From a virus (taxonomy: Duplodnaviria; Heunggongvirae; Uroviricota; Caudoviricetes): DNA of 8,996 bases. This document shows positions 1 to 8,996 of the stretch, piece after piece. Below the pieces are notes generated by a model. The model worked only from the letters and a program-made list of their open reading frames with translations. It had not been told where the DNA came from and ran no database searches. A program made the translations under genes and the position numbers. The DNA lies in the IMG/VR virus record IMGVR_UViG_2579778899_000011, positions 1 through 8,996 of that record; one strand, given 5' to 3'. Within the stretch, counting starts at the first letter, position 1; every line of letters starts with the position of its first letter.

Positions 1-12
1 GGTGAGATATTT

Positions 13-363
13 ATGCCATCACGAATCCCACGCGCCTGCCGTAAGCGTGGATGTGCAGGTACAACCACAGACAGTTCTGGTTACTGCGATAAACATCGTG
101 GCGAAGGATGGGTACAGCATCAACGCGGACTGAGCCGCCACCAGCGTGGCTATGGCTCGAAATGGGATGCCATACGTGCGCGCATACTGAAGCGTGATAA
201 TCATCTGTGTCAGAACTGCCTGCGCAATGGGAGAGCCGTTGAAGCCAGAACTGTGGACCACATCATTCCGAAAGCTCATGGTGGCACGGATGCAGACAGT
301 AACCTGCAGAGTCTGTGCTGGCCCTGTCATAAAGCAAAAACAGCGCGCGAACGCATCAATTGA
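13..363 (+). CDS. Phage HNH endonuclease of the type that sits next to cos and the terminase genes in HK97-like phages
   Basis: 116-aa ORF with ATG at 13 and a GGTGAG Shine-Dalgarno at 1-6. N-terminal Cys cluster (CRKRGCAG...GYCDKH) and the HNH core CQNCL...DHIIPKAHGG...N...LCWPCH. Position directly upstream of terS matches HK97-like packaging modules. Confidence 0.85.
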   Translation: MPSRIPRACRKRGCAGTTTDSSGYCDKHRGEGWVQHQRGLSRHQRGYGSKWDAIRARILKRDNHLCQNCLRNGRAVEARTVDHIIPKAHGGTDADSNLQSLCWPCHKAKTARERIN

Positions 364-510
364 TAACAGTTCCCATCTGTAGGGGAGGGGCGGGTCAAAT
401 CTCTGCAACCCTGGCTGCTCAGTACCGCCGCCTGACCCTTCCTCACATCGCCGCAGGTTCGAAAACTTTTTTTGGAAATGTGAACAAACGATTGATAGGT
501 AAGACCGATT

Positions 511-993
511 ATGTCAGGACCTCCGAAAACCCCGCCACGCCTGCATTTGATACGAGGCAACCCCTCAAAGCGCCCCGTTAAAGACCCCAAAAAAACCGCT
601 AAAAAGGATGAAAAAGGTCTTCCTAAAATTCCGCAGCATTTAGGGGCACAGGGGAAGTACTGGTTCAGGCGAATGGCGGAAGAGCTGAATGCGGAAGGGA
701 TCATTTCTCAGCTTGATGCGCGTGCACTCGAGTTGCTGGTGGAAGCCTACACCGAATATCGGCATCACTGCGAAACACTAGATGTTGAGGGGTATACCTA
801 CCGCACGAAAACGCAGAGCGGTGATGTACTGATTAAGGCGCACCCCGCGGCGGCAATGAAAGCGGATGCCTGGAAGCGGATCCGGGCAATGCTTGCAGAG
901 TTTGGTATGTCACCGGCAAGCCGGGCTAAAGTAAATATCGCCGGACCGGATGATGTTGATCCGCTGGCGGAGCTTTTAAAAGCGAGAGACTGA
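511..993 (+). CDS. terS: Terminase small subunit, P27 family
   Basis: 160-aa ORF with a basic N-terminus (GNPSKRPVKDPKK) and the P27-family core YWFRRMAEEL...ARALELLVEAYTEY...GMSPASRAKV. Its stop overlaps the terL start (TGATG at 991-995), indicating translational coupling. Confidence 0.8.
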   Translation: MSGPPKTPPRLHLIRGNPSKRPVKDPKKTAKKDEKGLPKIPQHLGAQGKYWFRRMAEELNAEGIISQLDARALELLVEAYTEYRHHCETLDVEGYTYRTKTQSGDVLIKAHPAAAMKADAWKRIRAMLAEFGMSPASRAKVNIAGPDDVDPLAELLKARD

Positions 994-2186
994 TGGCAAA
1001 AGTGGCTGACGGGATCCGCTACGCCGAACGTGTTGTTGCAGGAGAAATTGTTGCTGGCGAATTTGTCCGCCTGGCCTGCCAGCGTTTTCTTGATGATCTG
1101 AAGTACGGCGAAGAGCGGGGGATTTATTTCAGTGAACCCCGTGCGCAGCACATCCTGAATTTCTACAAATTTGTGCCTCATGTAAAAGGGGCGCTGGCAG
1201 GCCAGCCCATTGAGTTGATGGACTGGCATGTATTTATCCTCATTAATATTTTTGGTTTTGTCATTCCGCTGGTCAATGAAGAGACCGGAGAAGTTGTCAT
1301 GCGCAGCGATGGCAGCGGACGTCCGGTGATGGTGCGCCGGTTCCGGACGGCGTACAACGAAGTCGCCCGTAAAAACGCAAAATCAACTCTGTCATCGGGT
1401 ATCGGCCTGTATATGACGGGGGCAGATGGTGAAGGCGGAGCTGAGGTGTATTCAGCCGCAACCACGCGTGACCAGGCCAGAATCGTGTTTGAAGACGCCA
1501 AAAATATGGTCAGAAAAGCCCGGTCGACACTCGGGCGGTTGTTTGATTTCAACAAGCTGGCGATTTACCAGGAGCAGAGCGCATCAAAATTTGAACCGCT
1601 TTCTTCGGATGCAAACAACCTGGATGGTCTGAACATCCACTGCGCCATTATTGATGAGCTGCATGCACATAAAACCCGTGACGTGTGGGACGTTCTGGAA
1701 ACGGCAACCGGTGCCCGTCTGCAGTCCCTTTTATTTGGTATCACCACGGCAGGGTTTAACAAGGAAGGGATTTGTTACGAGCAGCGTGATTACGCCATCA
1801 AGGTATTGCGTGGCTATAACAGCGACGTGGAGGGCGCTGTAAAAGACGACTCCTACTTTGCGATTATTTACACCCTCGATGAGGGAGATGATCCGTTTGA
1901 TGAAACGGTCTGGCAGAAAGCAAATCCCGGCCTGGGCATCTGTAAACGCTGGGATGATCTGCGTCGTCTGGCGAAAAAAGCGAAAGAACAGGTCTCTGCG
2001 CGGGTGAATTTTTTTACCAAGAAAGTAACATCACGCCGTAACAACAGTGCGACCTGTCCTGATTTTTTTAGTAACCAAATGAAAGAAAAAGATTTTTTCT
2101 TGTTCGTCGTTTTTGTTTTTTCTGGAAGGTTCTGGCTGTTTTCATCATTTGTGTATTGCACTGTGTATTGCAAAAACGGGTTATAA
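993..2186 (+). pseudogene. terL: Terminase large subunit, 5' ATPase portion only; protein-like sequence stops near 2020 and the ORF tail is AT-rich read-through
   Basis: Residues 1-~340 look like a phage large terminase ATPase domain, with a Walker-B-like IHCAIIDELH and a WQKANPGLG segment. After SARVNFFTKK (about 2004-2024) the frame reads TSRRNNSATCPDFF...FLFVVFVFSGRFWLF, which is low-complexity and not protein-like. Full-length large terminases in this family are about 500-600 aa, so the nuclease domain is absent. This length comparison is from memory, not computed. Confidence 0.7.
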
Positions 2187-2191
2187 ATCAC
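2020..2191. other. Probable left attachment junction (attL) of the inserted element: AT-rich spacer with a tandem 11-bp direct repeat just upstream of int
   Basis: Sharp change from terminase coding sequence to AT-rich sequence with T-runs. Tandem repeat tgtgtattgca at 2150-2160 and 2162-2172. The integrase ATG follows at 2192. Confidence 0.4.
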
Positions 2192-3400
2192 ATGGCTCTA
2201 AACAAACTGAGCGATAAAAAACTTCGTTCCCTGCTTGGGCGCAGGAGTGAGAGGCAGGAAACCATCGCTGATGGTAACGGGCTTTCGGTACGGGTCAGTA
2301 AATACGGATGTGTTAGTTTTGTTTTCTTTTACAGACTGGCGGGAAGGGGAACCGCGCCCATCTGGCTGACACTTGGAAAATATCCTGATCTGAGTCTCAA
2401 ATCAGCGAGAGAGATGCGCGATCAGTGTCGAACCTGGCTTGCGGAGGGCAGAGATCCACGGATTCAGATAAAAATTGAACGGGAAGCCACCTTGCAACCT
2501 GTTACCGTTCGTGAGGCACTTGAATACTGGCTTGATAATTATGCAATGGATAAGCGTAGGGGAGCAGAACATATCAGGCAGTGCTTTGGTAAACATATTT
2601 ATCCGGTGATTGGTCATGTACCACTTAGTGATTGCTCTATATCTATGTGGATCAAGTGTTTTGACAAAATAAAAAAAGTAGCACCTGTACAGGCCGGAGC
2701 TTTGTTGCGTATATCAAAACAGGCGCTTAAATTTTGTAGGGTAAGAAAATACGCGATTAGTCATGAAATTGATGATCTTGAGGTCTGTGATGTGGGAAAA
2801 AAGTCTGCGCGAAGAAGCAGGGTTTTAACAGATGATGAAATCAGAGATTTATGGCGAAGTATTAATACTGATTATGACAATCACGAATTATCATATGAAA
2901 ACCGAATTATTTTACGTTTCCTGGTAGTTTTTGGTTGTCGACTGTCAGAAGTATTACTGTCGTCCTGGGTAGAGTGGGATTTTGATAAGAAATTATGGCG
3001 CGTTCCCGCTGATCATAGCAAAAATGGCAGGGAAATAATCAGACCGATTCCTGATGGCATGTTTAACTGGTTAGTTACGTTAAAAAAAATAACAGGTAAC
3101 AAAGAAAATGTGATTGGGTTTGATATGCGTCAGTGTACGGCAAGCGTAACTATCGGTAAGACATGGAAAAGGATGAAACACTCGGAAAAATGGACGGCGC
3201 ATGATATGCGAAGAGTGTTTGCCACAAAGCTAAGTGATCATGGTTTTGAACATAATGTGGTTGAACAGTTGCTTGGGCACACATTAGGCGGTGTTGCCGG
3301 GGTTTATAACAGAAGTCAGTATATGGACAGAAAAAAAGAAGCTATGAACTGGTGGTACGACTATCTGAATAAGCTAATTAGTGGTGACGGTAATGATTGA
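2192..3400 (+). CDS. int: Tyrosine site-specific integrase, P4-like, with an N-terminal arm-type DNA-binding domain
   Basis: 402 aa from the ATG at 2192. N-terminus MALNKLSDKKLRSL...GLSVRVSKYG...F.FFYR is typical of P4-family integrase arm-binding domains. C-terminus carries the catalytic-core pattern ...RLSEVL...HDMRRVFATKL...LLGHTLGGVAGVYNRSQY. Confidence 0.9.
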   Translation: MALNKLSDKKLRSLLGRRSERQETIADGNGLSVRVSKYGCVSFVFFYRLAGRGTAPIWLTLGKYPDLSLKSAREMRDQCRTWLAEGRDPRIQIKIEREATLQPVTVREALEYWLDNYAMDKRRGAEHIRQCFGKHIYPVIGHVPLSDCSISMWIKCFDKIKKVAPVQAGALLRISKQALKFCRVRKYAISHEIDDLEVCDVGKKSARRSRVLTDDEIRDLWRSINTDYDNHELSYENRIILRFLVVFGCRLSEVLLSSWVEWDFDKKLWRVPADHSKNGREIIRPIPDGMFNWLVTLKKITGNKENVIGFDMRQCTASVTIGKTWKRMKHSEKWTAHDMRRVFATKLSDHGFEHNVVEQLLGHTLGGVAGVYNRSQYMDRKKEAMNWWYDYLNKLISGDGND

Positions 3401-3614
3401 AATAGTTACGCGTGAAGAACTTGAAAATGATAAAACAATCGACAGGATGATTAAGGAAGATGAATGTGCATGGTTAACAGCTCTTGGCCGGAGACACAGA
3501 GCATTACTTGAAAAGGAAGGAAAATTTCCACGGAAAATATGTATTGGCCCACAAACAAAAGTCTGGCGCTTATCTGAGGTGCTGGAATGGGTAAAGGGTG
3601 AATGGAAACCCTGA
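3393..3614 (+). CDS. alpA: AlpA-family phage transcriptional regulator/excisionase-like HTH protein (copy 1)
   Basis: Small ORF whose start overlaps the int stop. Carries the AlpA-type motif ...LGRRHRALLEKEGKFPRKICIGPQTKVWRLSEVLEWV. An alternative start exists at 3447. Confidence 0.65.
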   Translation: MIEIVTREELENDKTIDRMIKEDECAWLTALGRRHRALLEKEGKFPRKICIGPQTKVWRLSEVLEWVKGEWKP

Positions 3615-3637
3615 ACTAAATTAAATGAGATATAATC

Positions 3638-3662
3638 AACCCGTCTTTTGGCGGGTTTTTTT
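3638..3662 (+). terminator. Rho-independent terminator after alpA copy 1
   Basis: Hairpin aacccg-tcttttgg-cgggtt followed by a run of 7 T, seen directly in the sequence. Confidence 0.55.
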
Positions 3663-3677
3663 ATAGGTGATATTTTT

Positions 3678-3956
3678 ATGCAAAAATTTATTTATCCTAC
3701 ACCCGAAGAACGCATTCAGATTCTGAAAGAACATGGCGAACCGTATGATCGCCGTATACGCGAACATGAGTGTGCCAATCGTACCGGGCTTTCAAGAAGC
3801 AGACGTTGGGTACTTGAACAGGAGGGAGCATTTCCTGCTCGTGCTCATTTAGGGAAAGTGTCTGTTTCCTGGTTGCTCTCTGATGTGCTCTGGTGGGTTA
3901 TGCATCCGCCAGGAGTAAAGGAAGTAAACAGCCCATACAAAAACGCCAATAAGTAA
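3678..3956 (+). CDS. Second AlpA-like HTH regulator, a paralog of the upstream copy
   Basis: ATG at 3678 with an AGGTGA Shine-Dalgarno at 3665-3670. The track's TTG start at 3648 lies inside the upstream terminator and is rejected. Motif HECANRTGLSRSRRWVLEQEGAFPARAHLGKVSVSWLLSDVLWWV parallels copy 1. Confidence 0.6.
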   Translation: MQKFIYPTPEERIQILKEHGEPYDRRIREHECANRTGLSRSRRWVLEQEGAFPARAHLGKVSVSWLLSDVLWWVMHPPGVKEVNSPYKNANK

Positions 3957-3964
3957 TTACCGAC

Positions 3965-3995
3965 AACCCCGCACCACGCAATGCGGGGTTTTTTG
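3965..3995 (+). terminator. Rho-independent terminator after the second alpA-like gene
   Basis: Stem aaccccgca (3965-3973) pairs with tgcggggtt (3982-3990) around an 8-nt loop, followed by TTTTTG. Confidence 0.6.
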
Positions 3996-4013
3996 TATGT
4001 GAGGTAGAAAGTG

Positions 4014-4607
4014 ATGAATAAAAATATTGCCGCGACGGGCAAGGGTGACGCACGTCATGTGAAAAAATTCTGTGATATTCGTGATCTGGTCGTTCTGCGC
4101 TTTGATAGTGTGAACGTTCGCGTGGTGTATCTGAACGGCGATCCGTGGTTTGTTGGCGCTGATGTGTGTGCGGCGCTGGAAATTAGCAACGTTACCGATG
4201 CTGTTTCAGTTCTGGATAGCGATGAGGTAATGACCCTAGCTTTAACCGAGGGTCATTCAGGTAAGCGTGGTGGTGCCAGAAGTTGGAATGTTGTATCAGA
4301 ATCAGGTTTTTACAAGTTGATCGCCAGAAGTCGCAAAGCTGTTAATCCTGGCACGTTCGCCCATCGTTTCAGTAATTGGGTATTCAGAAATGTGATACCG
4401 GGTATCAGAAAAACGGGGGCTTATGGTATCCCGTGGGGCGCATTACAGGATTTTTCCCGCCGCAAAGAGCAATACCAGATAAGTGCCAGTGAGAAGGGGA
4501 GGGCGCTACAGGCATGTAAGCGCAAAAAGCGTGAACTGGAGGAGGAAGAAAAAAGGCTGATACGTGAATATCAGCCTGAGTTTTACTTTGGTGAGCGTAT
4601 TCAGTAA
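4014..4607 (+). CDS. Bro-N domain protein (phage antirepressor-like N-terminal domain) with a charged, coiled-coil-like C-terminus
   Basis: ATG at 4014 with a GAGGTAG Shine-Dalgarno at 4001-4007. Bro-N signatures: F...IR...DGDPWFVGADVCAALEISN...SESGFYKLIARSRKAVNPGTFAHRFSNWVFRNVIPGIRKTGAYG. C-terminus KRKKRELEEEEKRLIREY. No KilA-C/Ant C-terminal domain is apparent. Confidence 0.7.
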   Translation: MNKNIAATGKGDARHVKKFCDIRDLVVLRFDSVNVRVVYLNGDPWFVGADVCAALEISNVTDAVSVLDSDEVMTLALTEGHSGKRGGARSWNVVSESGFYKLIARSRKAVNPGTFAHRFSNWVFRNVIPGIRKTGAYGIPWGALQDFSRRKEQYQISASEKGRALQACKRKKRELEEEEKRLIREYQPEFYFGERIQ

Positions 4608-4890
4608 CCGCGTACGGTGCTGATTATACGGTACATCGTGTTAACCGGGAAGTTACCCACCAGCAAGGCAAAATCTTCTGCTAAAAAATGACATATGGCC
4701 AGTCGTCCGGAAAGCATGAAATTTTACAAAAATGGAAAATGAAGATTTTTATTGTGCTGGTGGGTAAAAACAAAAAGCGCCCCGTTACCGGAGCGCCCTT
4801 GCGAACAATTAACCTACTGCGCAAAAAATGAATCTGTGCGGGGGGATTATATCAACCGTGGTCGAAATGACCATAGTTGCAGGATAACAG

Positions 4891-4920
4891 GCAAAACAAA
4901 GGCCACCCGCTACGGTGGCC
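4891..4920 (-). terminator. Rho-independent terminator for leftward transcription
   Basis: Perfect 7-bp stem ggccacc/ggtggcc (4901-4920) around a 6-nt loop. On the minus strand it is followed by a U-rich tract (plus-strand caaaacaaa at 4892-4900). Confidence 0.5.
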
Positions 4921-4998
4921 CCTCGACACAAGCACACGTTATCCCCAACGCATGAGCATAACCAACAATGCCACATTTACGGCTGGTGGGCAATGTGA

Positions 4999-5172
4999 TC
5001 AGTCAGATTTGGTTCGTTCCAAGGTTTGCAACGAGAGCTTTTTCCTGTGCTCTTTAAGGAATTTCTCAAGAGCAAAAGCACATGGCGCGAATCTTTCTGA
5101 TTCATGCTCTATCTTTCTGCGCCGTCTTTTCCGTGCCGGTGATAATGTTTTGGTCAATTCTTTATCGGTCAT
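4999..5172 (-). CDS. Hypothetical small, highly basic protein downstream of the RHH-like gene; may be non-coding
   Basis: ORF in the six-frame track (4999-5187). An internal ATG at 5172 has an AGGA-like Shine-Dalgarno. Contains RKRRRRK. No recognisable family. Confidence 0.2.
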   Translation of the reverse strand: MTDKELTKTLSPARKRRRRKIEHESERFAPCAFALEKFLKEHRKKLSLQTLERTKSD

Positions 5173-5229
5173 TGTGTTGTCCTGCATAGCAATGCGCCGT
5201 AGTTACTCACACCACGGCGCTGGTGATGG

Positions 5230-5409
5230 TTACTCCTGCTCTTTGGCCTTGCGACGCTGGCGGTACTCAACTTCTCGCTTTAATGCTGCTGTTACAAACT
5301 GCCCTGTACTTTCACCAGGCATTTTTACCGCCTCAACATTGTTCATAACTTCATGCGGAACCCTTGCCGCAACTGTTTGTGATTTTGCGTTTACTGCTTT
5401 TGTCGCCAT
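5230..5409 (-). CDS. Small ribbon-helix-helix-like DNA-binding protein, candidate repressor of the divergent switch
   Basis: 59-aa ORF translated by hand from the minus strand: MATKAVNAKSQTVAARVPHEVMNNVEAVKMPGESTGQFVTAALKREVEYRQRRKAKEQE. GAGGGG Shine-Dalgarno about 8 nt upstream of the ATG. Not in the supplied track because it is under the length cut-off. The RHH assignment rests on a beta-strand/helix/helix pattern judged by eye. Confidence 0.4.
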   Translation of the reverse strand: MATKAVNAKSQTVAARVPHEVMNNVEAVKMPGESTGQFVTAALKREVEYRQRRKAKEQE

Positions 5410-5459
5410 GTTGTGTACCCCTCACAAAAAACAAATGCAGTATGCAGGAAAAAAAATAA

Positions 5460-5511
5460 GTGTTCAACACTTGACGTGTTTAACACCTGGGTTTAAATTG
5501 GTGTTCAACAC
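5460..5511. promoter_or_regulatory. Divergent promoter/operator region with three copies of an 11-bp palindrome
   Basis: gtgttcaacac at 5460-5470, gtgtttaacac at 5476-5486, gtgttcaacac at 5501-5511. Each is a GTGTT/AACAC inverted repeat. A -35-like ttgacg (5471-5476) and a -10-like taaatt (5494-5499) 17 bp apart sit between and over the operators, pointing rightward toward the operon starting at 5609. Confidence 0.5.
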
Positions 5512-5608
5512 CTTATTAATGCAAGGTGCAGAAACGACGAAACCCGGCAGTGCGCGAACACTAACCGGGCTTCTAACCACCAACGATAGCAAGCGTATCG
5601 AGGTAGCT

Positions 5609-5815
5609 ATGAGAAATCATACCACACACCCGCAAGGGCGGGACTCGCACAACCTGAATAAATACATCTGGCGTTTTATCGCCCTGAGTACGGCACAACC
5701 GCGCGTAATTCACATCGAGGCCACCAGCGAACAGGAAGCACGCCAGCAATCTCCTGATGGCTGCGTGATGGTATTCGCCGCCCGTATTCGTCAGGAGGTG
5801 AGCCATGTGCAATAA
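5609..5815 (+). CDS. Small protein resembling the Icd-like (host cell division inhibitor) family of P4-like elements
   Basis: 68 aa, MRNHTTHPQGRDSHNLNKYIWRFIALSTAQPRVIHIEATSEQEARQQ..., with GAGG just upstream of the ATG. The family assignment is from memory of annotations in P4-like islands, not from a search. Confidence 0.4.
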   Translation: MRNHTTHPQGRDSHNLNKYIWRFIALSTAQPRVIHIEATSEQEARQQSPDGCVMVFAARIRQEVSHVQ

Positions 5816-6050
5816 CACCCGTCCGGACGCAGCCGCCGAAGCTATCAGAACGCTGATGCACGCGCTGATTGATATTTCATGCACGGCAGCAACCGCAGAA
5901 AAACACATTACCAGAGAGACGGAATATACAGGGGCAATAATCCCGCATTCGCTGGTCTACACACAGCTTACCGCTGATATGGCGCTGAATGAGGCTAAAG
6001 CCATCCTGATTGCTGATTGTGAAAATGGCGGGGGCGATTATGCGAAATAA
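5805..6050 (+). CDS. Hypothetical protein, translationally coupled to the upstream gene
   Basis: 81-aa ORF with a strong AGGAGGTG Shine-Dalgarno at 5793-5800. Its ATG at 5805 overlaps the stop of the preceding gene at 5813-5815. Confidence 0.4.
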   Translation: MCNNTRPDAAAEAIRTLMHALIDISCTAATAEKHITRETEYTGAIIPHSLVYTQLTADMALNEAKAILIADCENGGGDYAK

Positions 6051-6258
6051 ACATGATATTGAAGACCTGGCATTTGAAGCCCTGCACTCTGCGAAAAAAA
6101 TCAGGGAAGTCGTCAATATGTGGATGAACAGCCTTAGCACCGATAAATCCGATAGCAGAGAAGAAATTCTTATTTCTTTGTTGTTAGACCTGGCAAATAC
6201 ACAGGTTTCTCTGACATCTGATATTGAGCTCGCCGCTAAAAAGCTGCCTCTGGAGTAA
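6040..6258 (+). CDS. Hypothetical small acidic protein
   Basis: The ATG at 6040 overlaps the stop of the previous gene at 6048-6050. An alternative ATG lies at 6025. No recognisable motif. Confidence 0.35.
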   Translation: MRNKHDIEDLAFEALHSAKKIREVVNMWMNSLSTDKSDSREEILISLLLDLANTQVSLTSDIELAAKKLPLE

Positions 6259-6264
6259 AAAAAC

Positions 6265-6579
6265 ATGAAAAAGAAAAATTCTGGCTTTACTGCCAGCGGT
6301 CACGCTCGGCCTGAAATCCGCCCCGGTGATATTTTCCGGGATAAATACGGCAGCACGATAACGATTAAAACCGTCGATGATTTTCGTGTGACCTATATCC
6401 GCGAAGGTTATGCGCATCCCTGCGTGTCGTCACATATGCGCTTTGACAGGGAGTTCACCCTGGTAAGCAAAGCACCACCAGCAGAATTAAGCGACATCGA
6501 CAGAATCATGCGCGTTACAGGAATGGAACGCATTAAGGCAGTACGTGAAATTATTCGTGAACGGGGAAAGGCAAAATGA
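6265..6579 (+). CDS. Small protein, DUF4222-like, of the kind found immediately upstream of replication genes in P4-like islands
   Basis: 104-aa ORF with a GGAG Shine-Dalgarno about 8 nt upstream. Motif PGDIFRDKYGSTITIKTVDDFRVTYIREGYAHPC. Its stop overlaps the start of the next gene (ATGA at 6576-6579). DUF assignment is from memory. Confidence 0.35.
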   Translation: MKKKNSGFTASGHARPEIRPGDIFRDKYGSTITIKTVDDFRVTYIREGYAHPCVSSHMRFDREFTLVSKAPPAELSDIDRIMRVTGMERIKAVREIIRERGKAK

Positions 6580-8702
6580 AGCGCGCACCAAACTTAAAGC
6601 ACCAGCCAGCCGACAAAATGACGGAGGTTATCATCTTTGCGGGTAGTGATGCGTGGAGCCATGCGAAAGAGTGGCAGGAATGGGCAGGTAAACATATTGC
6701 CGCCGACAATGTGCCGCCTGTCGTTCTGTCAGATGAACACCTGAAAGATATTACTGGTTATCAAATTATTGATGATAGCCGTCAGTGTGTGCGTATTTAC
6801 CGCGCAGGGCACATCACTGAACGTAGCCTCACACAGATCGTCACGTTGCTGGCTGTGGCTGGCGTGAAGACCGTATACGAATACGCGGGGATAACTGACA
6901 CCAGCCCGGCGGATTTATCCGACCAGTTGCCTCGCCTCAAAGACGAATACGAGCGCGGGGAAAGTCTGGTGTTGCCCTTAAAGAAAAAAATCACAGAAAG
7001 CCCGGGTGATGATGAATTAAAGCCCCGCGTTGAAAGCCGCGCCGATGGTGTTTTCTGGGTAACGCCAAAAGTGGATAAGCAGTCAGGCGAAATTATCCGG
7101 CCTGAAACGTGGTTATGCTCCCCGCTTGAGCTACTGGGAACGGGGACAATCGGCAAAGAGCATTACCGCGTGATGCGCTGGAAAAAGCCAGCAAACCATG
7201 ACGTCATCACGATGGCGGTTCCGTGCGGTGGCATTGGCGACCGTGACGGCTGGCGGCTGCTGAAAGACCACGGACTGAACGTGACAACCAACGGTAAATA
7301 CAGGGCTATCCTGGCTGACTGGATGCAGTTAAGCGGAAACCATGAGGAATGGCAGTTAAGCACAACAACGGGCTGGCATTTTGGCGCGTACATCATGCCG
7401 GACGGTTCGGTCATTGGTGATTGCGAAAAGCCAGTCCTGTTTACCGGAAAAACGGCTGCCGTTAATGGTTATTCCGTGGCAGGAACGGCGGAGGGCTGGC
7501 GCGATACCGTGGCGCGACTGGCTGGTGGTAATCCGTCCATGATGCTGGGTGTGGCGGTATCGCTATCCGCACCATTAATCGGGCTGGTGGGCGCTGATGG
7601 CTTCGGGGTACATCTTTTCGAACAGTCATCAGCAGGTAAGACCACAACGCAGAACATCGCATCAAGTTTATGGGGGGAGCCGGACGCACAACGGCTGACC
7701 TGGTACGGCACAGCGTTAGGTATCGCCAACGAAGCAGAGGCACACAATGACGGGCTTTTACCCCTGGATGAAATAGGTCAGGCCGGAAACGCGCGGGAGG
7801 TGTCCACGTCAGCCTATACGCTGTTTAACGGTTCAGGGAAATTACAGGGGGCAAAGGACGGCGGCAACAGGGAGATAAAACACTGGCGAACGGTGGCAAT
7901 CAGTACCGGAGAAATGGACGTTGAAACATTCCTCAAAACGGAGGGGATAAAAGTCAAGGCGGGGCAGCTTGTCCGTCTGCTTAACGTGCCGATGGAAAAA
8001 GCCACGCAGTTTCACGAATACAGCACCGGAAAGGCACACGCAGACGCGTTAAAGGATGCCTGGACAGCAAATCACGGGGCGGCTGGTCGTGAATGGGTTA
8101 AATGGCTGGCAGACCACCAGCAGGAGGCAAAGGACGCGGTAAGGGCATGCCGTGAACGGTGGCGCAATCTGATACCGGAGAGCTACGGCGAACAGGTTCA
8201 CCGCGTGGGTGAGCGATTCGCCATACTGGAGGCCGCGCTTGTGCTTTCCGGTCATGTTACTGGCTGGGATGTTCAGGCGTGCCGCGATGCCATACAGCAT
8301 AATTTTAATGCCTGGGTGAAGGAATTCGGTACGGGTAACAGGGAGTTTAAACAGATGGTTGAACAGGCAGAGGCTTTTTTAGCGTCGTTCGGATTCAGCA
8401 GATACCTTCCGTGGCCCAACACCGACGAGCGTGATTTACCGATTAAAGAGCTTGCCGGATACAGAAAGGGGAGTATCAGAAACGAAGATGACGAGTTCCG
8501 TTTTTACACGTTCCCACATGTATTTGAGGGTGAGATAGCACAGGGATTTAATCCGTCTCACTTTGCCCGCGCGTTGAGTGCTGCCGGAATGCTGGAAGCG
8601 GGTAACGATCGCCGTTACAAGAAAAAGGCGCTCGGCAGGATTGGGGGGAAGCAGCATGTTTTTTACGTGCTGATGTTCCAGCCAGAAAGCGAAGAAGATT
8701 AA
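6576..8702 (+). CDS. Replication initiator, a P-loop NTPase (primase/helicase-like; DUF927 or SF3-like family candidate)
   Basis: 708-aa ORF. Walker A EQSSAGKTT at residues 349-357 (nt 7620-7646). Walker-B-like LLPLDE about 40 residues downstream. A large N-terminal domain has no motif I can name. Lies immediately upstream of an iteron-rich origin-like region. Confidence 0.65.
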   Translation: MKRAPNLKHQPADKMTEVIIFAGSDAWSHAKEWQEWAGKHIAADNVPPVVLSDEHLKDITGYQIIDDSRQCVRIYRAGHITERSLTQIVTLLAVAGVKTVYEYAGITDTSPADLSDQLPRLKDEYERGESLVLPLKKKITESPGDDELKPRVESRADGVFWVTPKVDKQSGEIIRPETWLCSPLELLGTGTIGKEHYRVMRWKKPANHDVITMAVPCGGIGDRDGWRLLKDHGLNVTTNGKYRAILADWMQLSGNHEEWQLSTTTGWHFGAYIMPDGSVIGDCEKPVLFTGKTAAVNGYSVAGTAEGWRDTVARLAGGNPSMMLGVAVSLSAPLIGLVGADGFGVHLFEQSSAGKTTTQNIASSLWGEPDAQRLTWYGTALGIANEAEAHNDGLLPLDEIGQAGNAREVSTSAYTLFNGSGKLQGAKDGGNREIKHWRTVAISTGEMDVETFLKTEGIKVKAGQLVRLLNVPMEKATQFHEYSTGKAHADALKDAWTANHGAAGREWVKWLADHQQEAKDAVRACRERWRNLIPESYGEQVHRVGERFAILEAALVLSGHVTGWDVQACRDAIQHNFNAWVKEFGTGNREFKQMVEQAEAFLASFGFSRYLPWPNTDERDLPIKELAGYRKGSIRNEDDEFRFYTFPHVFEGEIAQGFNPSHFARALSAAGMLEAGNDRRYKKKALGRIGGKQHVFYVLMFQPESEED

Positions 8703-8724
8703 TTTTTTCTCGCGTGTAGGGTGA

Positions 8725-8880
8725 AAATTTTGCGGGTTATGCGGGTTATTTCTGTGGATAAATCAGCATCCATATGATTATTAAAGGAATGACAGAAAAA
8801 TCGTAACCCGCAAAATACCCAAAATAACCCGCAAAACGGCAGTTATAACCCGCAAAAGTGCGATTATAACCCGCAGAATT
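8725..8880. repeat. Origin-of-replication-like iteron array with a DnaA box and an AT-rich spacer
   Basis: Four direct repeats of (t)ataacccgca(a/g)aa at about 8804, 8824, 8845 and 8866, spaced roughly 20-21 bp. Inverted tandem copies gcgggttat at 8731-8749. A perfect DnaA box TTATCCACA on the minus strand (plus tgtggataa, 8753-8761). AT-rich stretch at 8750-8800. Confidence 0.6.
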
Positions 8881-8938
8881 TCACCGTAAGGGTGTAAACA
8901 AGCGTAACCATCAACGTTAAAACCGGAGAGCAGACAGC

Positions 8939-8996
8939 ATGACAGCACAGATAGCGGCTTACGGGCGGCTGGTGGCTGACCCGCAGTTAAAGACCA
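8939..8996 (+). CDS. 5' end of a gene running off the window; N-terminus resembles the start of SSB-type OB-fold proteins
   Basis: ATG at 8939 preceded by GGAGAG. MTAQIAAYGRLVADPQLKT resembles the N-terminal strand of SSB family proteins. Only 19 residues are visible. Confidence 0.25.
   Translation, partial: MTAQIAAYGRLVADPQLKT

Follow-up and report, generated by a model that had tools for sequence, protein, structure and literature searches.

The stretch of DNA analysed here (the window: 8,996 nucleotides, positions 1 to 8,996 of the IMG/VR virus record IMGVR_UViG_2579778899_000011) carries a phage satellite of the phage-inducible chromosomal island (PICI) or capsid-forming PICI (cf-PICI) type, and our subject is the noncoding island at 4608-4998 in its regulatory region. 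On the left, the island is bordered by bro, a BRO-N/anti-repressor-like gene and the last of a rightward block, int-alpA-alpA-bro. On the right, it is bordered by a leftward operon of two small genes, ylcI and hyp (4999-5409), whose products match phrog_21027 and phrog_949. The island is the junction of these two converging transcription blocks. Read along the minus strand, it consists of the 3′ untranslated region (UTR) of hyp with an intrinsic terminator (T1), then a separate small gene made up of a promoter, an RNA of about 74 nucleotides (nt) with a conserved core and a second intrinsic terminator (T2), and finally a variable spacer. We predict that this unit is probably a new satellite-borne small RNA (sRNA) gene. 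The explanation as a whole, which joins the operon junction, the sRNA gene and an accumulation of Chi octamers along the satellite, is given a probability of roughly 0.55.

No convincing open reading frame (ORF) was found in the island, in agreement with an earlier sequence-only reading of the same stretch. The longest ORF encodes 67 amino acids (aa), PHROG gave no match for any of the three longest, and the RefSeq annotation of a genome that is 100% identical over the region is empty there. The leftward terminator that the sequence-only reading had placed in the island was also confirmed as T1, with a stem at 4923-4898 and a T-run extending to about 4893. In the related loci L006 and L007, the T1 stem shows two-sided changes that preserve pairing (GGCGACC/GGTCGCC versus GGCCACC/GGTGGCC). 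A stronger minus-strand terminator at 4800-4773, together with the promoter upstream of it, had been missed. The suggestion of a small or regulatory RNA locus therefore holds insofar as the island is noncoding and an sRNA gene is indicated, but the RNA is not built from the Chi-containing repeats on which that suggestion was founded.

The promoter and terminator of the small gene lie on the same strand at the spacing of an sRNA. The promoter (TGGTCA-16-TATAAT) matches the consensus at 10 of 12 hexamer positions and has a TG motif, an assignment made by consensus match. T2 is a GC-rich hairpin of 12 pairs, 7 of them G-C, closed by a GUAA loop and followed by a U-tract. The start of the RNA was placed at G4839, 7 nt after the −10 element, and its end was placed by the U-tract. 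Judged by these signals, it is likely that a discrete RNA is made from 4766-4839. The hairpin is retained in all 22 distinct terminator-region sequences, which were drawn from 41 unique variants of the RNA region and folded individually, with energies of −14.7 to −21.7 kcal/mol. It occurs in two registers, GCGCUCCG-GYAA-CGGGGCGC and GCGGCUCC-UUAUC-GGGGCCGC, the difference being a G and a C insertion that compensate each other; in one further variant a C-G pair is changed to A-U and the hairpin is kept. Because the two versions differ in register, covariation counts on a model-fitted alignment understate the terminator, and it was judged by per-variant folding instead.

The same variants bear on whether the locus could encode a small protein or a type I toxin-antitoxin system, in which a plus-strand ORF at 4740-4831 (30 aa, MKIFIVLVGKNKK...) would provide the toxin and the minus-strand RNA the antitoxin. 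This ORF does overlap the antisense strand of the RNA, and the N-terminus of its product is mildly hydrophobic. However, the hydrophobic stretch spans only about 7 residues, the product has no PHROG match, and the start of the ORF lies in a variable flank that is missing from most family members, and the ORF is not conserved across the classes described below. Coding potential was equally poor for the island in general (ORFs of at most 67 aa, no PHROG match, flanks not conserved), and a length difference of 1 nt between terminator variants means that a reading frame is not kept from one to the next. We consider a toxin-antitoxin system or small protein very improbable.

The 20-nt core, which we propose as the seed of the RNA, may form a weak 5-bp hairpin (AGYRG / YUGUU, loop GUUAA). 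The proposed partners pair in 99% of cells, versus 25-63% when the partner columns are slid. However, all of the changes are one-sided and wobble-compatible, and shuffled sequences pair equally well; these data are thus compatible with a core hairpin without being evidence for it. The predicted mean unpaired probability of the core is 0.38-0.76 across variants and classes. We also considered the core as a repeated DNA operator, and rejected this because it has no second copy in the window. Coordinates of the features in the island and its surroundings are collected in Table 1.

Table 1. Positions of the island's features and of the surrounding genes in the 8,996-nt window.
Feature	Position	Strand	Remarks
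Predicted small RNA	4766-4839	-	About 74 nt; between T1 and the right repeat arm
Small RNA promoter (predicted)	4846-4873	-	Extended −10 TGATATAAT (4854-4846), 16-nt spacer, −35-like TGGTCA (4873-4868)
Conserved core (proposed seed)	4803-4822	-	GCGCAGUAGGUUAAUUGUUC, 20 nt; just before T2
Intrinsic terminator T2	4766-4800	-	Stem-loop 4800-4773, then UUUUUGUUUUU
Intrinsic terminator T1	4893-4923	-	10 pairs, then TTTGTTTT; ends the leftward ylcI-hyp operon
hyp 3′ UTR	4924-4998	-	Contains the third repeat and a plus-strand Chi; conserved block in alignments
Variable spacer	4608-4765		Homologous only among satellites with this bro gene; contains the left arm and an A/T-rich block
Left repeat arm	4653-4665		TTACCCACCAGCA; 4654-4666 in the sequence-only reading; Chi 4657-4664 (-)
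Right repeat arm	4755-4767		TGCTGGTGGGTAA; same position in the sequence-only reading; Chi 4756-4763 (+), directly after the U-tract of the small RNA
Third repeat	4982-4993		GCTGGTGGGCAA; 4983-4994 in the sequence-only reading; Chi 4982-4989 (+)
Phage small terminase gene	511-993		Left end of the window
Large terminase gene (HK97-like prophage terL)	993-2186		ATPase domain intact; only the start of the nuclease domain
Tyrosine integrase gene (int)	2156-3400		Directly after the truncated terL
Two AlpA-family genes (alpA)	3381-3614 and 3648-3956		In tandem
bro (BRO-N/anti-repressor-like)	4011-4607	+	Ends the rightward int-alpA-alpA-bro block; borders the island on the left
hyp	4999-5187	-	Small gene, function not assigned; phrog_21027; leftward operon with ylcI
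ylcI (YlcI/YnfO family)	5230-5409	-	NCBIfam YlcI_YnfO_N (E 2e-16); also RefSeq
Icd-like gene	5609-5815	+	First gene of the rightward operon
DUF4222 gene	6265-6579	+	Rightward operon
DUF927 primase-helicase gene	6576-8702	+	Rightward operon

Conservation and distribution of the predicted small RNA unit

When the window was aligned with seven homologues from E. coli, the conserved sequence fell mainly at about 4765-4925 and in a block near 4982. Related copies of the unit fall into three classes (A, B and C) that have non-homologous 5′ contexts, and all three keep the core and the terminator. Among 60 unique sequences of class A, to which the window's promoter belongs, conservation is highest in the −10 element and the core (mean column entropy 0.13 in each) and lower in the terminator, the spacer and the 5′ part of the RNA (0.3-0.5; 0.32-0.51 in the RNA segments neighbouring the core). 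Immediately after the U-tract the entropy rises to 1.35; homology stops there, and at least five different 3′ flanks follow. Correspondingly, at least five unrelated sequences occupy the position of the spacer (4608-4765) in other satellites. Each of the three upstream contexts supplies its own sigma-70-type promoter at the right distance, again by consensus match: TTCACT-17-TATAAT at the equivalent place in class B (strain 55989 and E. ruysiae), and TTGCCC-17-TATCAT in class C (Sakai Sp7 and others). Class C also lacks T1, and its conserved unit directly follows the hyp stop region.

The 75 nt between the hyp stop codon and T1 (4924-4998) are almost identical in several otherwise diverged relatives and resemble the 5′ part of the class C RNA. 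This segment could represent a second, 3′-UTR-derived small RNA that ends at T1.

A degenerate pattern of the core retrieved 114 IMG/VR loci and 76 metagenome loci, and a relaxed version added class C, including Sakai Sp7. Pattern matches were obtained in more than 220 related sequences. Among 185,579 species representatives, the pattern was found only in Escherichia ruysiae, the 8 other matches being chance occurrences in unrelated phyla. A covariance model built from 25 variants detected exactly one copy in each of 100 related loci (1.0 Mb), with scores of 51-105 bits. BLAST located the unit in 443 of 5426 complete E. coli genomes (about 8%), in up to 6 copies per genome, and no RNA feature is annotated at the unit among the E. 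coli genome matches listed. Carriers include CFT073, where the unit lies in an island adjoining roxA, and Sakai, where prophage-like element Sp7 holds a class C copy. The positions corresponding to 4766-4839 are 3008210-3008290 in CFT073 (NZ_CP058222.1, plus strand of the record) and 1596812-1596892 in O157 Sakai (NC_002695.2, minus strand). In every case the unit sits between the alpA-side block and the ylcI-side block and is convergent with alpA.

Searches for a known identity gave no candidate that could be kept. Rfam 15 was scanned permissively with the whole window and then with the island alone, and nothing reached a gathering threshold; the best matches scored 22-24 bits against thresholds of 50-52 and aligned to the terminator only. 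A full-text search of the searchable literature did not return the small RNA sequence. Four described RNAs were considered and rejected. Esr41 lies at a different locus, on SpLE1, and the Pas sRNAs lie in lambdoid late regions. EcOnc33, a 71-nt Hfq-bound RNA at Sakai 1557089, had seemed eligible by position, but belongs to the lambdoid prophage Sp6, downstream of an esterase gene. EsrF is the glnA 3′ UTR.

Possible partners of the predicted RNA and competing explanations

Between copies the promoter, both flanks and the 5′ part of the RNA are exchanged, but the core stays constant, a pattern that leads us to favour base pairing in trans. The argument is that a cis-antisense RNA is complementary to its target whatever its sequence, so conservation of the core points to a constraint imposed from elsewhere. 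We propose that the small gene would make a regulatory RNA while the satellite is quiescent, and that the core of this RNA would base-pair with a partner not encoded by the satellite, most likely a host mRNA. Action in trans on a host target is put forward tentatively, with a good deal less confidence than the existence of the RNA itself. In its broadest form, the proposal would be that E. coli PICIs and cf-PICIs, probably including the prototypes, carry an unnoticed sRNA gene whose core reprograms a host or helper transcript while the element is silent, in addition to being loaded with Chi so as to withstand or exploit RecBCD; this extension we regard as speculative and somewhat doubtful.

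A number of results weigh against our main explanation. Class A usually lacks a good −35 element, and no two-sided covariation was seen outside the terminator across the variants. The family is confined to Escherichia and its members are close to one another, so that recent common descent may account for part of the conservation. In an Hfq-crosslinking (Hfq-CRAC) table for O157 Sakai, which covers one strain in one condition, there is no peak in Sp7, where the class C copy lies. The searches for a target were equally negative. The window contains no stretch of more than 9 nt complementary to the RNA outside the gene itself, and seed-only duplex scans of the window gave energies no better than those of shuffled seeds; full-length duplex scans were discarded because they were dominated by the GC-rich terminator. 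No recurrent target site appeared in 1.86 Mb of related loci, comprising satellites and prophages. No target emerged in the helper phage HK106 either, where the best site (−37.5 kcal/mol, compared with −34.4 kcal/mol for shuffled seeds) fell on the palindrome TGCGCA. BLAST against a phage database returned only copies of the small RNA gene and no target. BLAST against E. coli genomes likewise returned only copies of the gene, in a search that detects complementary matches of about 19 nt or longer.

The failure to find a trans target in the window, the related loci or HK106 is one of the points in favour of what we see as the main rival explanation, namely that the RNA is real but has a role in cis. 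The RNA would pair with read-through transcripts from the int-alpA-bro block, or convergent transcription from its strong promoter would as such collide with them. Either way, the effect would be to shield ylcI-hyp from antisense interference or to make the alpA/bro message less stable, much like the action of lambda OOP on cII. No plus-strand intrinsic terminator lies between the bro stop codon (4607) and the RNA gene, neither hairpin being followed by a plus-strand T-run, and the same is true downstream of alpA in the O157 and CFT073 version. Transcripts induced from the alpA side would thus traverse the RNA gene and continue antisense into ylcI-hyp. The invariable placement of the unit between the alpA-side and ylcI-side blocks, convergent with alpA, would also be expected. 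On the other hand, a cis-antisense RNA needs no conserved sequence, and yet the core hardly varies among copies that have different flanks and 5′ parts. Furthermore, the RNA gene overlaps no coding sequence and starts 158 nt beyond the bro stop codon, and the read-through is itself only postulated. We therefore regard a purely cis-acting role as unlikely, though it deserves more weight than any of the other alternatives.

A weaker rival dispenses with a separate gene altogether. T1 and T2 would be tandem terminators, the conserved block would be part of a long 3′ UTR, the promoter would be fortuitous, and any small RNA would arise by 3′-UTR processing. This is most plausible for class C, which lacks T1, so that a 3′-UTR origin is possible there. 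It would also accommodate the fact that a recognisable −35 element is mostly missing in class A, and that there is no Hfq peak in Sakai Sp7. In class A, however, T1 is a good terminator upstream of the unit. The extended −10 element is a perfect one and equals the core in conservation (entropy 0.13), and three non-homologous upstream contexts each place a promoter at the right distance. Taken together, these observations make the absence of a separate gene improbable, and a discrete sRNA gene with its own promoter and terminator is the reading that we retain.

The inverted repeat, the satellite and its Chi sites

The sequence-only reading had centred on three Chi-containing repeats, and had suggested that the first two could form a long-range RNA stem or a protein-bridged DNA loop, within a P4-type element that uses RNA-based immunity. 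All three repeats are present, although two of the three coordinate ranges were one base off (Table 1), and they share a further flank, G-Y-A-A, beyond Chi. The first two copies do form a perfect 13-nt inverted repeat, with the arms 89 nt apart rather than 88. The comparative data give no support to a function of the pair. The left arm is confined to the bro-linked flank (34 loci, 13 unique sequences), where most relatives read CTACCC and the repeat is only 12 nt long. In 2 of the 13 unique variants the left-arm Chi is broken while the right arm is unchanged, without compensation. In locus L139, the right-arm block stands behind a different upstream sequence and the left arm is absent, and both arms are missing from most members of the wider family. 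A promoter scan found none able to transcribe across both arms. Since the arms are not conserved as a pair, neither the long-range stem nor the protein-bridged loop is supported.

The wider model, in which the inverted repeat would act as an RNA stem or DNA loop in a P4-style immunity system, could draw on the perfect repeat and on the four bases beyond Chi that are common to all three motifs, but is largely refuted by these inheritance patterns. It also disagrees with the architecture of the element. The core has no complementary box in the primase operon or elsewhere in the window, the Rfam scan yielded no C4 or IsrK match at E ≤ 1, and the switch region has operators of the protein type. 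Here, the palindrome GTGTT(C/T)AACAC occurs three times (5461-5471, 5477-5487 and 5501-5511, in the region 5455-5515), overlapping a rightward promoter (TTGACG-17-TAAATT) between the divergent ylcI gene and the Icd-like operon. These palindromes are putative protein operators, and their arrangement looks like a classic three-operator switch for a small repressor. With the int-alpA-primase layout of a PICI or cf-PICI in place as well, we conclude that the element is a satellite of this type with a protein-operator switch and not a P4-type RNA immunity system; the chance that the sequence-only model is right appears very slight.

In some relatives, a HicB-family gene takes the place of the YlcI/YnfO gene. 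The leader of the Icd-like gene (5506-5608) holds two hairpins. By covariance model, its minus strand at 5536-5608 weakly resembles symR (32 bits, the threshold being 61; E 0.005), and C4 gave no match. The region may be a structured leader or encode an antisense RNA to the Icd-like message. A 312-aa plus-strand ORF (4877-5815) runs antisense through both small leftward genes into the Icd-like gene, and a comparable long ORF is present in locus L004 (1260-2672). RefSeq sometimes calls such ORFs oversized 'Icd-like' proteins, which then cover the small RNA gene. They are probably an annotation artefact, and the organization of the locus described here explains these spurious long ORFs.

Several further observations identify the element. 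The integrase, two AlpA genes and DUF927 primase-helicase of a PICI or cf-PICI are all present in the window, and the gene order (int, alpA, junction, Icd-like, DUF4222, primase) is that of E. coli PICIs and cf-PICIs. The bro product matches Pfam Bro-N (E 1.8e-16) and a PHROG anti-repressor family (E 4.5e-77), and is named 'BRO family protein' by RefSeq in the genome that is identical over the island. The CFT073 island adjoining roxA has the identical gene order, followed by capsid genes, and is probably EcCICFT073. In Sakai Sp7 (15.46 kb), which is taken to be the equivalent of EcCIEDL933, an integrase and a primase occur at matching relative positions, and the genes between them are mostly unnamed. 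The right half of the window's satellite, with or without capsid genes, lies beyond the end of the window, as do its packaging functions and full size; satellites of this type measure about 10-15 kb. Many relatives, including the CFT073 and O157 versions, have a single AlpA gene and no BRO/anti-repressor gene, and the relatives in CFT073 and O157 adjoin roxA and carry a different integrase from that of the window. At the left end, the terL nuclease domain is broken off exactly at the start of the satellite integrase gene. RefSeq annotates the flanking terminase as an internal fragment in the genome matching the island, and the satellite therefore appears to be integrated inside a prophage terL gene.

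The three Chi motifs of the island are part of a satellite-wide excess and not part of an RNA structure. The octamer 5′-GCTGGTGG-3′ is the commonest in the window, with 11 occurrences against 0.27 expected from window shuffles, and only 3 of the 11 lie in the island. Chi occurs 0.94 times per kb in 174 related loci. A set of 91 dereplicated satellite segments (926 kb; loci L018-L250) contains 944 Chi (1.02 per kb, range 0.44-1.73), making Chi the top octamer, more than twice as frequent as the next and 36 times the expectation from base composition. E. coli K-12 has one Chi per 4.6 kb (PMC12315714), so the satellite density is roughly 5 times the E. coli average. Orientation in the satellites is mixed (577 versus 464), in local runs. 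The plus-strand site equivalent to 4982 is conserved in position in essentially all loci, with 178 plus-strand Chi in the corresponding 250-bp bin of 173 loci. Full Chi activity is reported to call for purines at positions 4-7 on the 3′ side, with AAAA preferred (PMC5041463); the site at 4756 has the optimal AAAA, and those at 4982 and 4657 have ATGT and ACTT, respectively.

No recombination or anti-RecBCD gene was recognised among the scanned genes of the window, the right half of the satellite lying beyond it. The Chi excess suggests that these satellites may depend on RecBCD and Chi. The sites would presumably have accumulated to blunt degradation of linear or concatemeric DNA by RecBCD, or to recruit RecBCD-RecA. 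We found no report of Chi enrichment in phage satellites in the searchable literature.

The Chi motifs were also considered as −35 elements in the window and rejected, as the −10 candidates downstream of them, read from the sequence, are poor. In class C satellites (L066, 12320-12348; L212, 6900-6935; and others including Sakai Sp7), the −35 element of the small RNA promoter comes from the motif TTGCCCACCAGCC, so that one sequence is both Chi site and promoter element. Its homologue in the window, at 4993-4981, lies in the hyp 3′ UTR, with T1 and a different promoter between the motif and the RNA gene.

Comparison with known systems

Lambda OOP and P22 Sar are RNAs of about 70-77 nt with a constitutive-looking promoter and a strong intrinsic terminator, encoded convergently to a regulatory gene in a phage control region. 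The satellite RNA is alike in its predicted length of about 74 nt, in having its own promoter and terminator, and in its convergent placement. Whereas OOP and Sar extend over the coding or ribosome-binding sequence of the messages they target, the satellite RNA begins 158 nt past the bro stop codon and would overlap only a possible read-through transcript, and its conserved core suggests a sequence-specific partner elsewhere.

The CI RNA of P4 and the C4 RNA of P1/P7 are, like the predicted RNA, small structured RNAs in temperate or satellite elements of enterobacteria, and the immI region of P1 includes an Icd-like gene, as the satellite does. However, processing releases CI and C4 from the leader of the very operon that they regulate, and the boxes with which they pair are in the same transcript. 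The satellite unit is encoded on the minus strand and lies about 600 bp away from the rightward Icd-primase operon, from which it diverges. It has neither a complementary box in the window nor a C4/IsrK match at E ≤ 1, and the element has three palindromic operators instead.

Known E. coli satellites of this type include EcCICFT073 and EcCIEDL933, which have int, alpA and rep in common (bioRxiv 10.1101/2022.09.08.507074). The order int, alpA, junction, Icd-like, DUF4222, primase is shared with the window, and the RNA unit is present in the CFT073 island and, in its class C version, in Sp7; unlike the CFT073 island, the satellite of the window appears to be inserted in prophage terL and not beside roxA. 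The terms small RNA, repressor and RecBCD each have 0 occurrences in the cf-PICI paper (bioRxiv 10.1101/2022.09.08.507074), and no RNA regulator or repressor of an E. coli PICI or cf-PICI is named in the searchable papers. How these elements are kept silent, and how they affect the host before induction, is only partly understood, and a concrete candidate is offered by an sRNA gene that is conserved, present in single copy and located at the regulatory junction. It should be easily testable, because CFT073 and O157 Sakai, both already in laboratory use, appear to carry the unit. With about 8% of complete E. coli genomes carrying the unit, it may be an unrecognised regulator in pathogenic strains, and if the reading is true an RNA layer would be added to the conflict between satellite, helper and host.

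For the Chi sites, the parallel is with lambdoid phages that lack a recombination module (LLS and relatives) and have accumulated Chi (PMC12315714). LLS and the satellites both carry Chi strongly above the E. coli background, at 1 per 1.86 kb and about 1 per kb, respectively. They differ in arrangement: 20 of the 23 LLS sites are in one orientation and clustered at one end of the genome, whereas those of the satellites are mixed. A dependence of satellites on RecBCD and Chi would extend this strategy, recently described for some lambdoid phages.

Finally, sRNAs encoded on prophages and islands of pathogenic E. coli include Esr41 (on SpLE1), AgvB/AsxR and PasA-D (PMC5286369, PMC8565820, PMC4104026, bioRxiv 10.64898/2026.05.13.724894). 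The predicted RNA resembles them in being short (about 55-80 nt in the cases checked), in lying on a horizontally acquired element, in a narrow distribution (Escherichia and Shigella lineages for these sRNAs) and in a copy number that varies between strains, and it shares at least with Esr41 a GC-rich terminator with a poly-U tail. It differs in locus and sequence: Esr41 is on SpLE1, the Pas RNAs lie beside lambdoid Q and holin genes, and the EcOnc peaks exclude Sp7. The predicted satellite RNA sits instead in the regulatory junction of a PICI-type element. Small RNAs on mobile elements are thus already known as a kind, to which a satellite sRNA gene would probably be a new addition.

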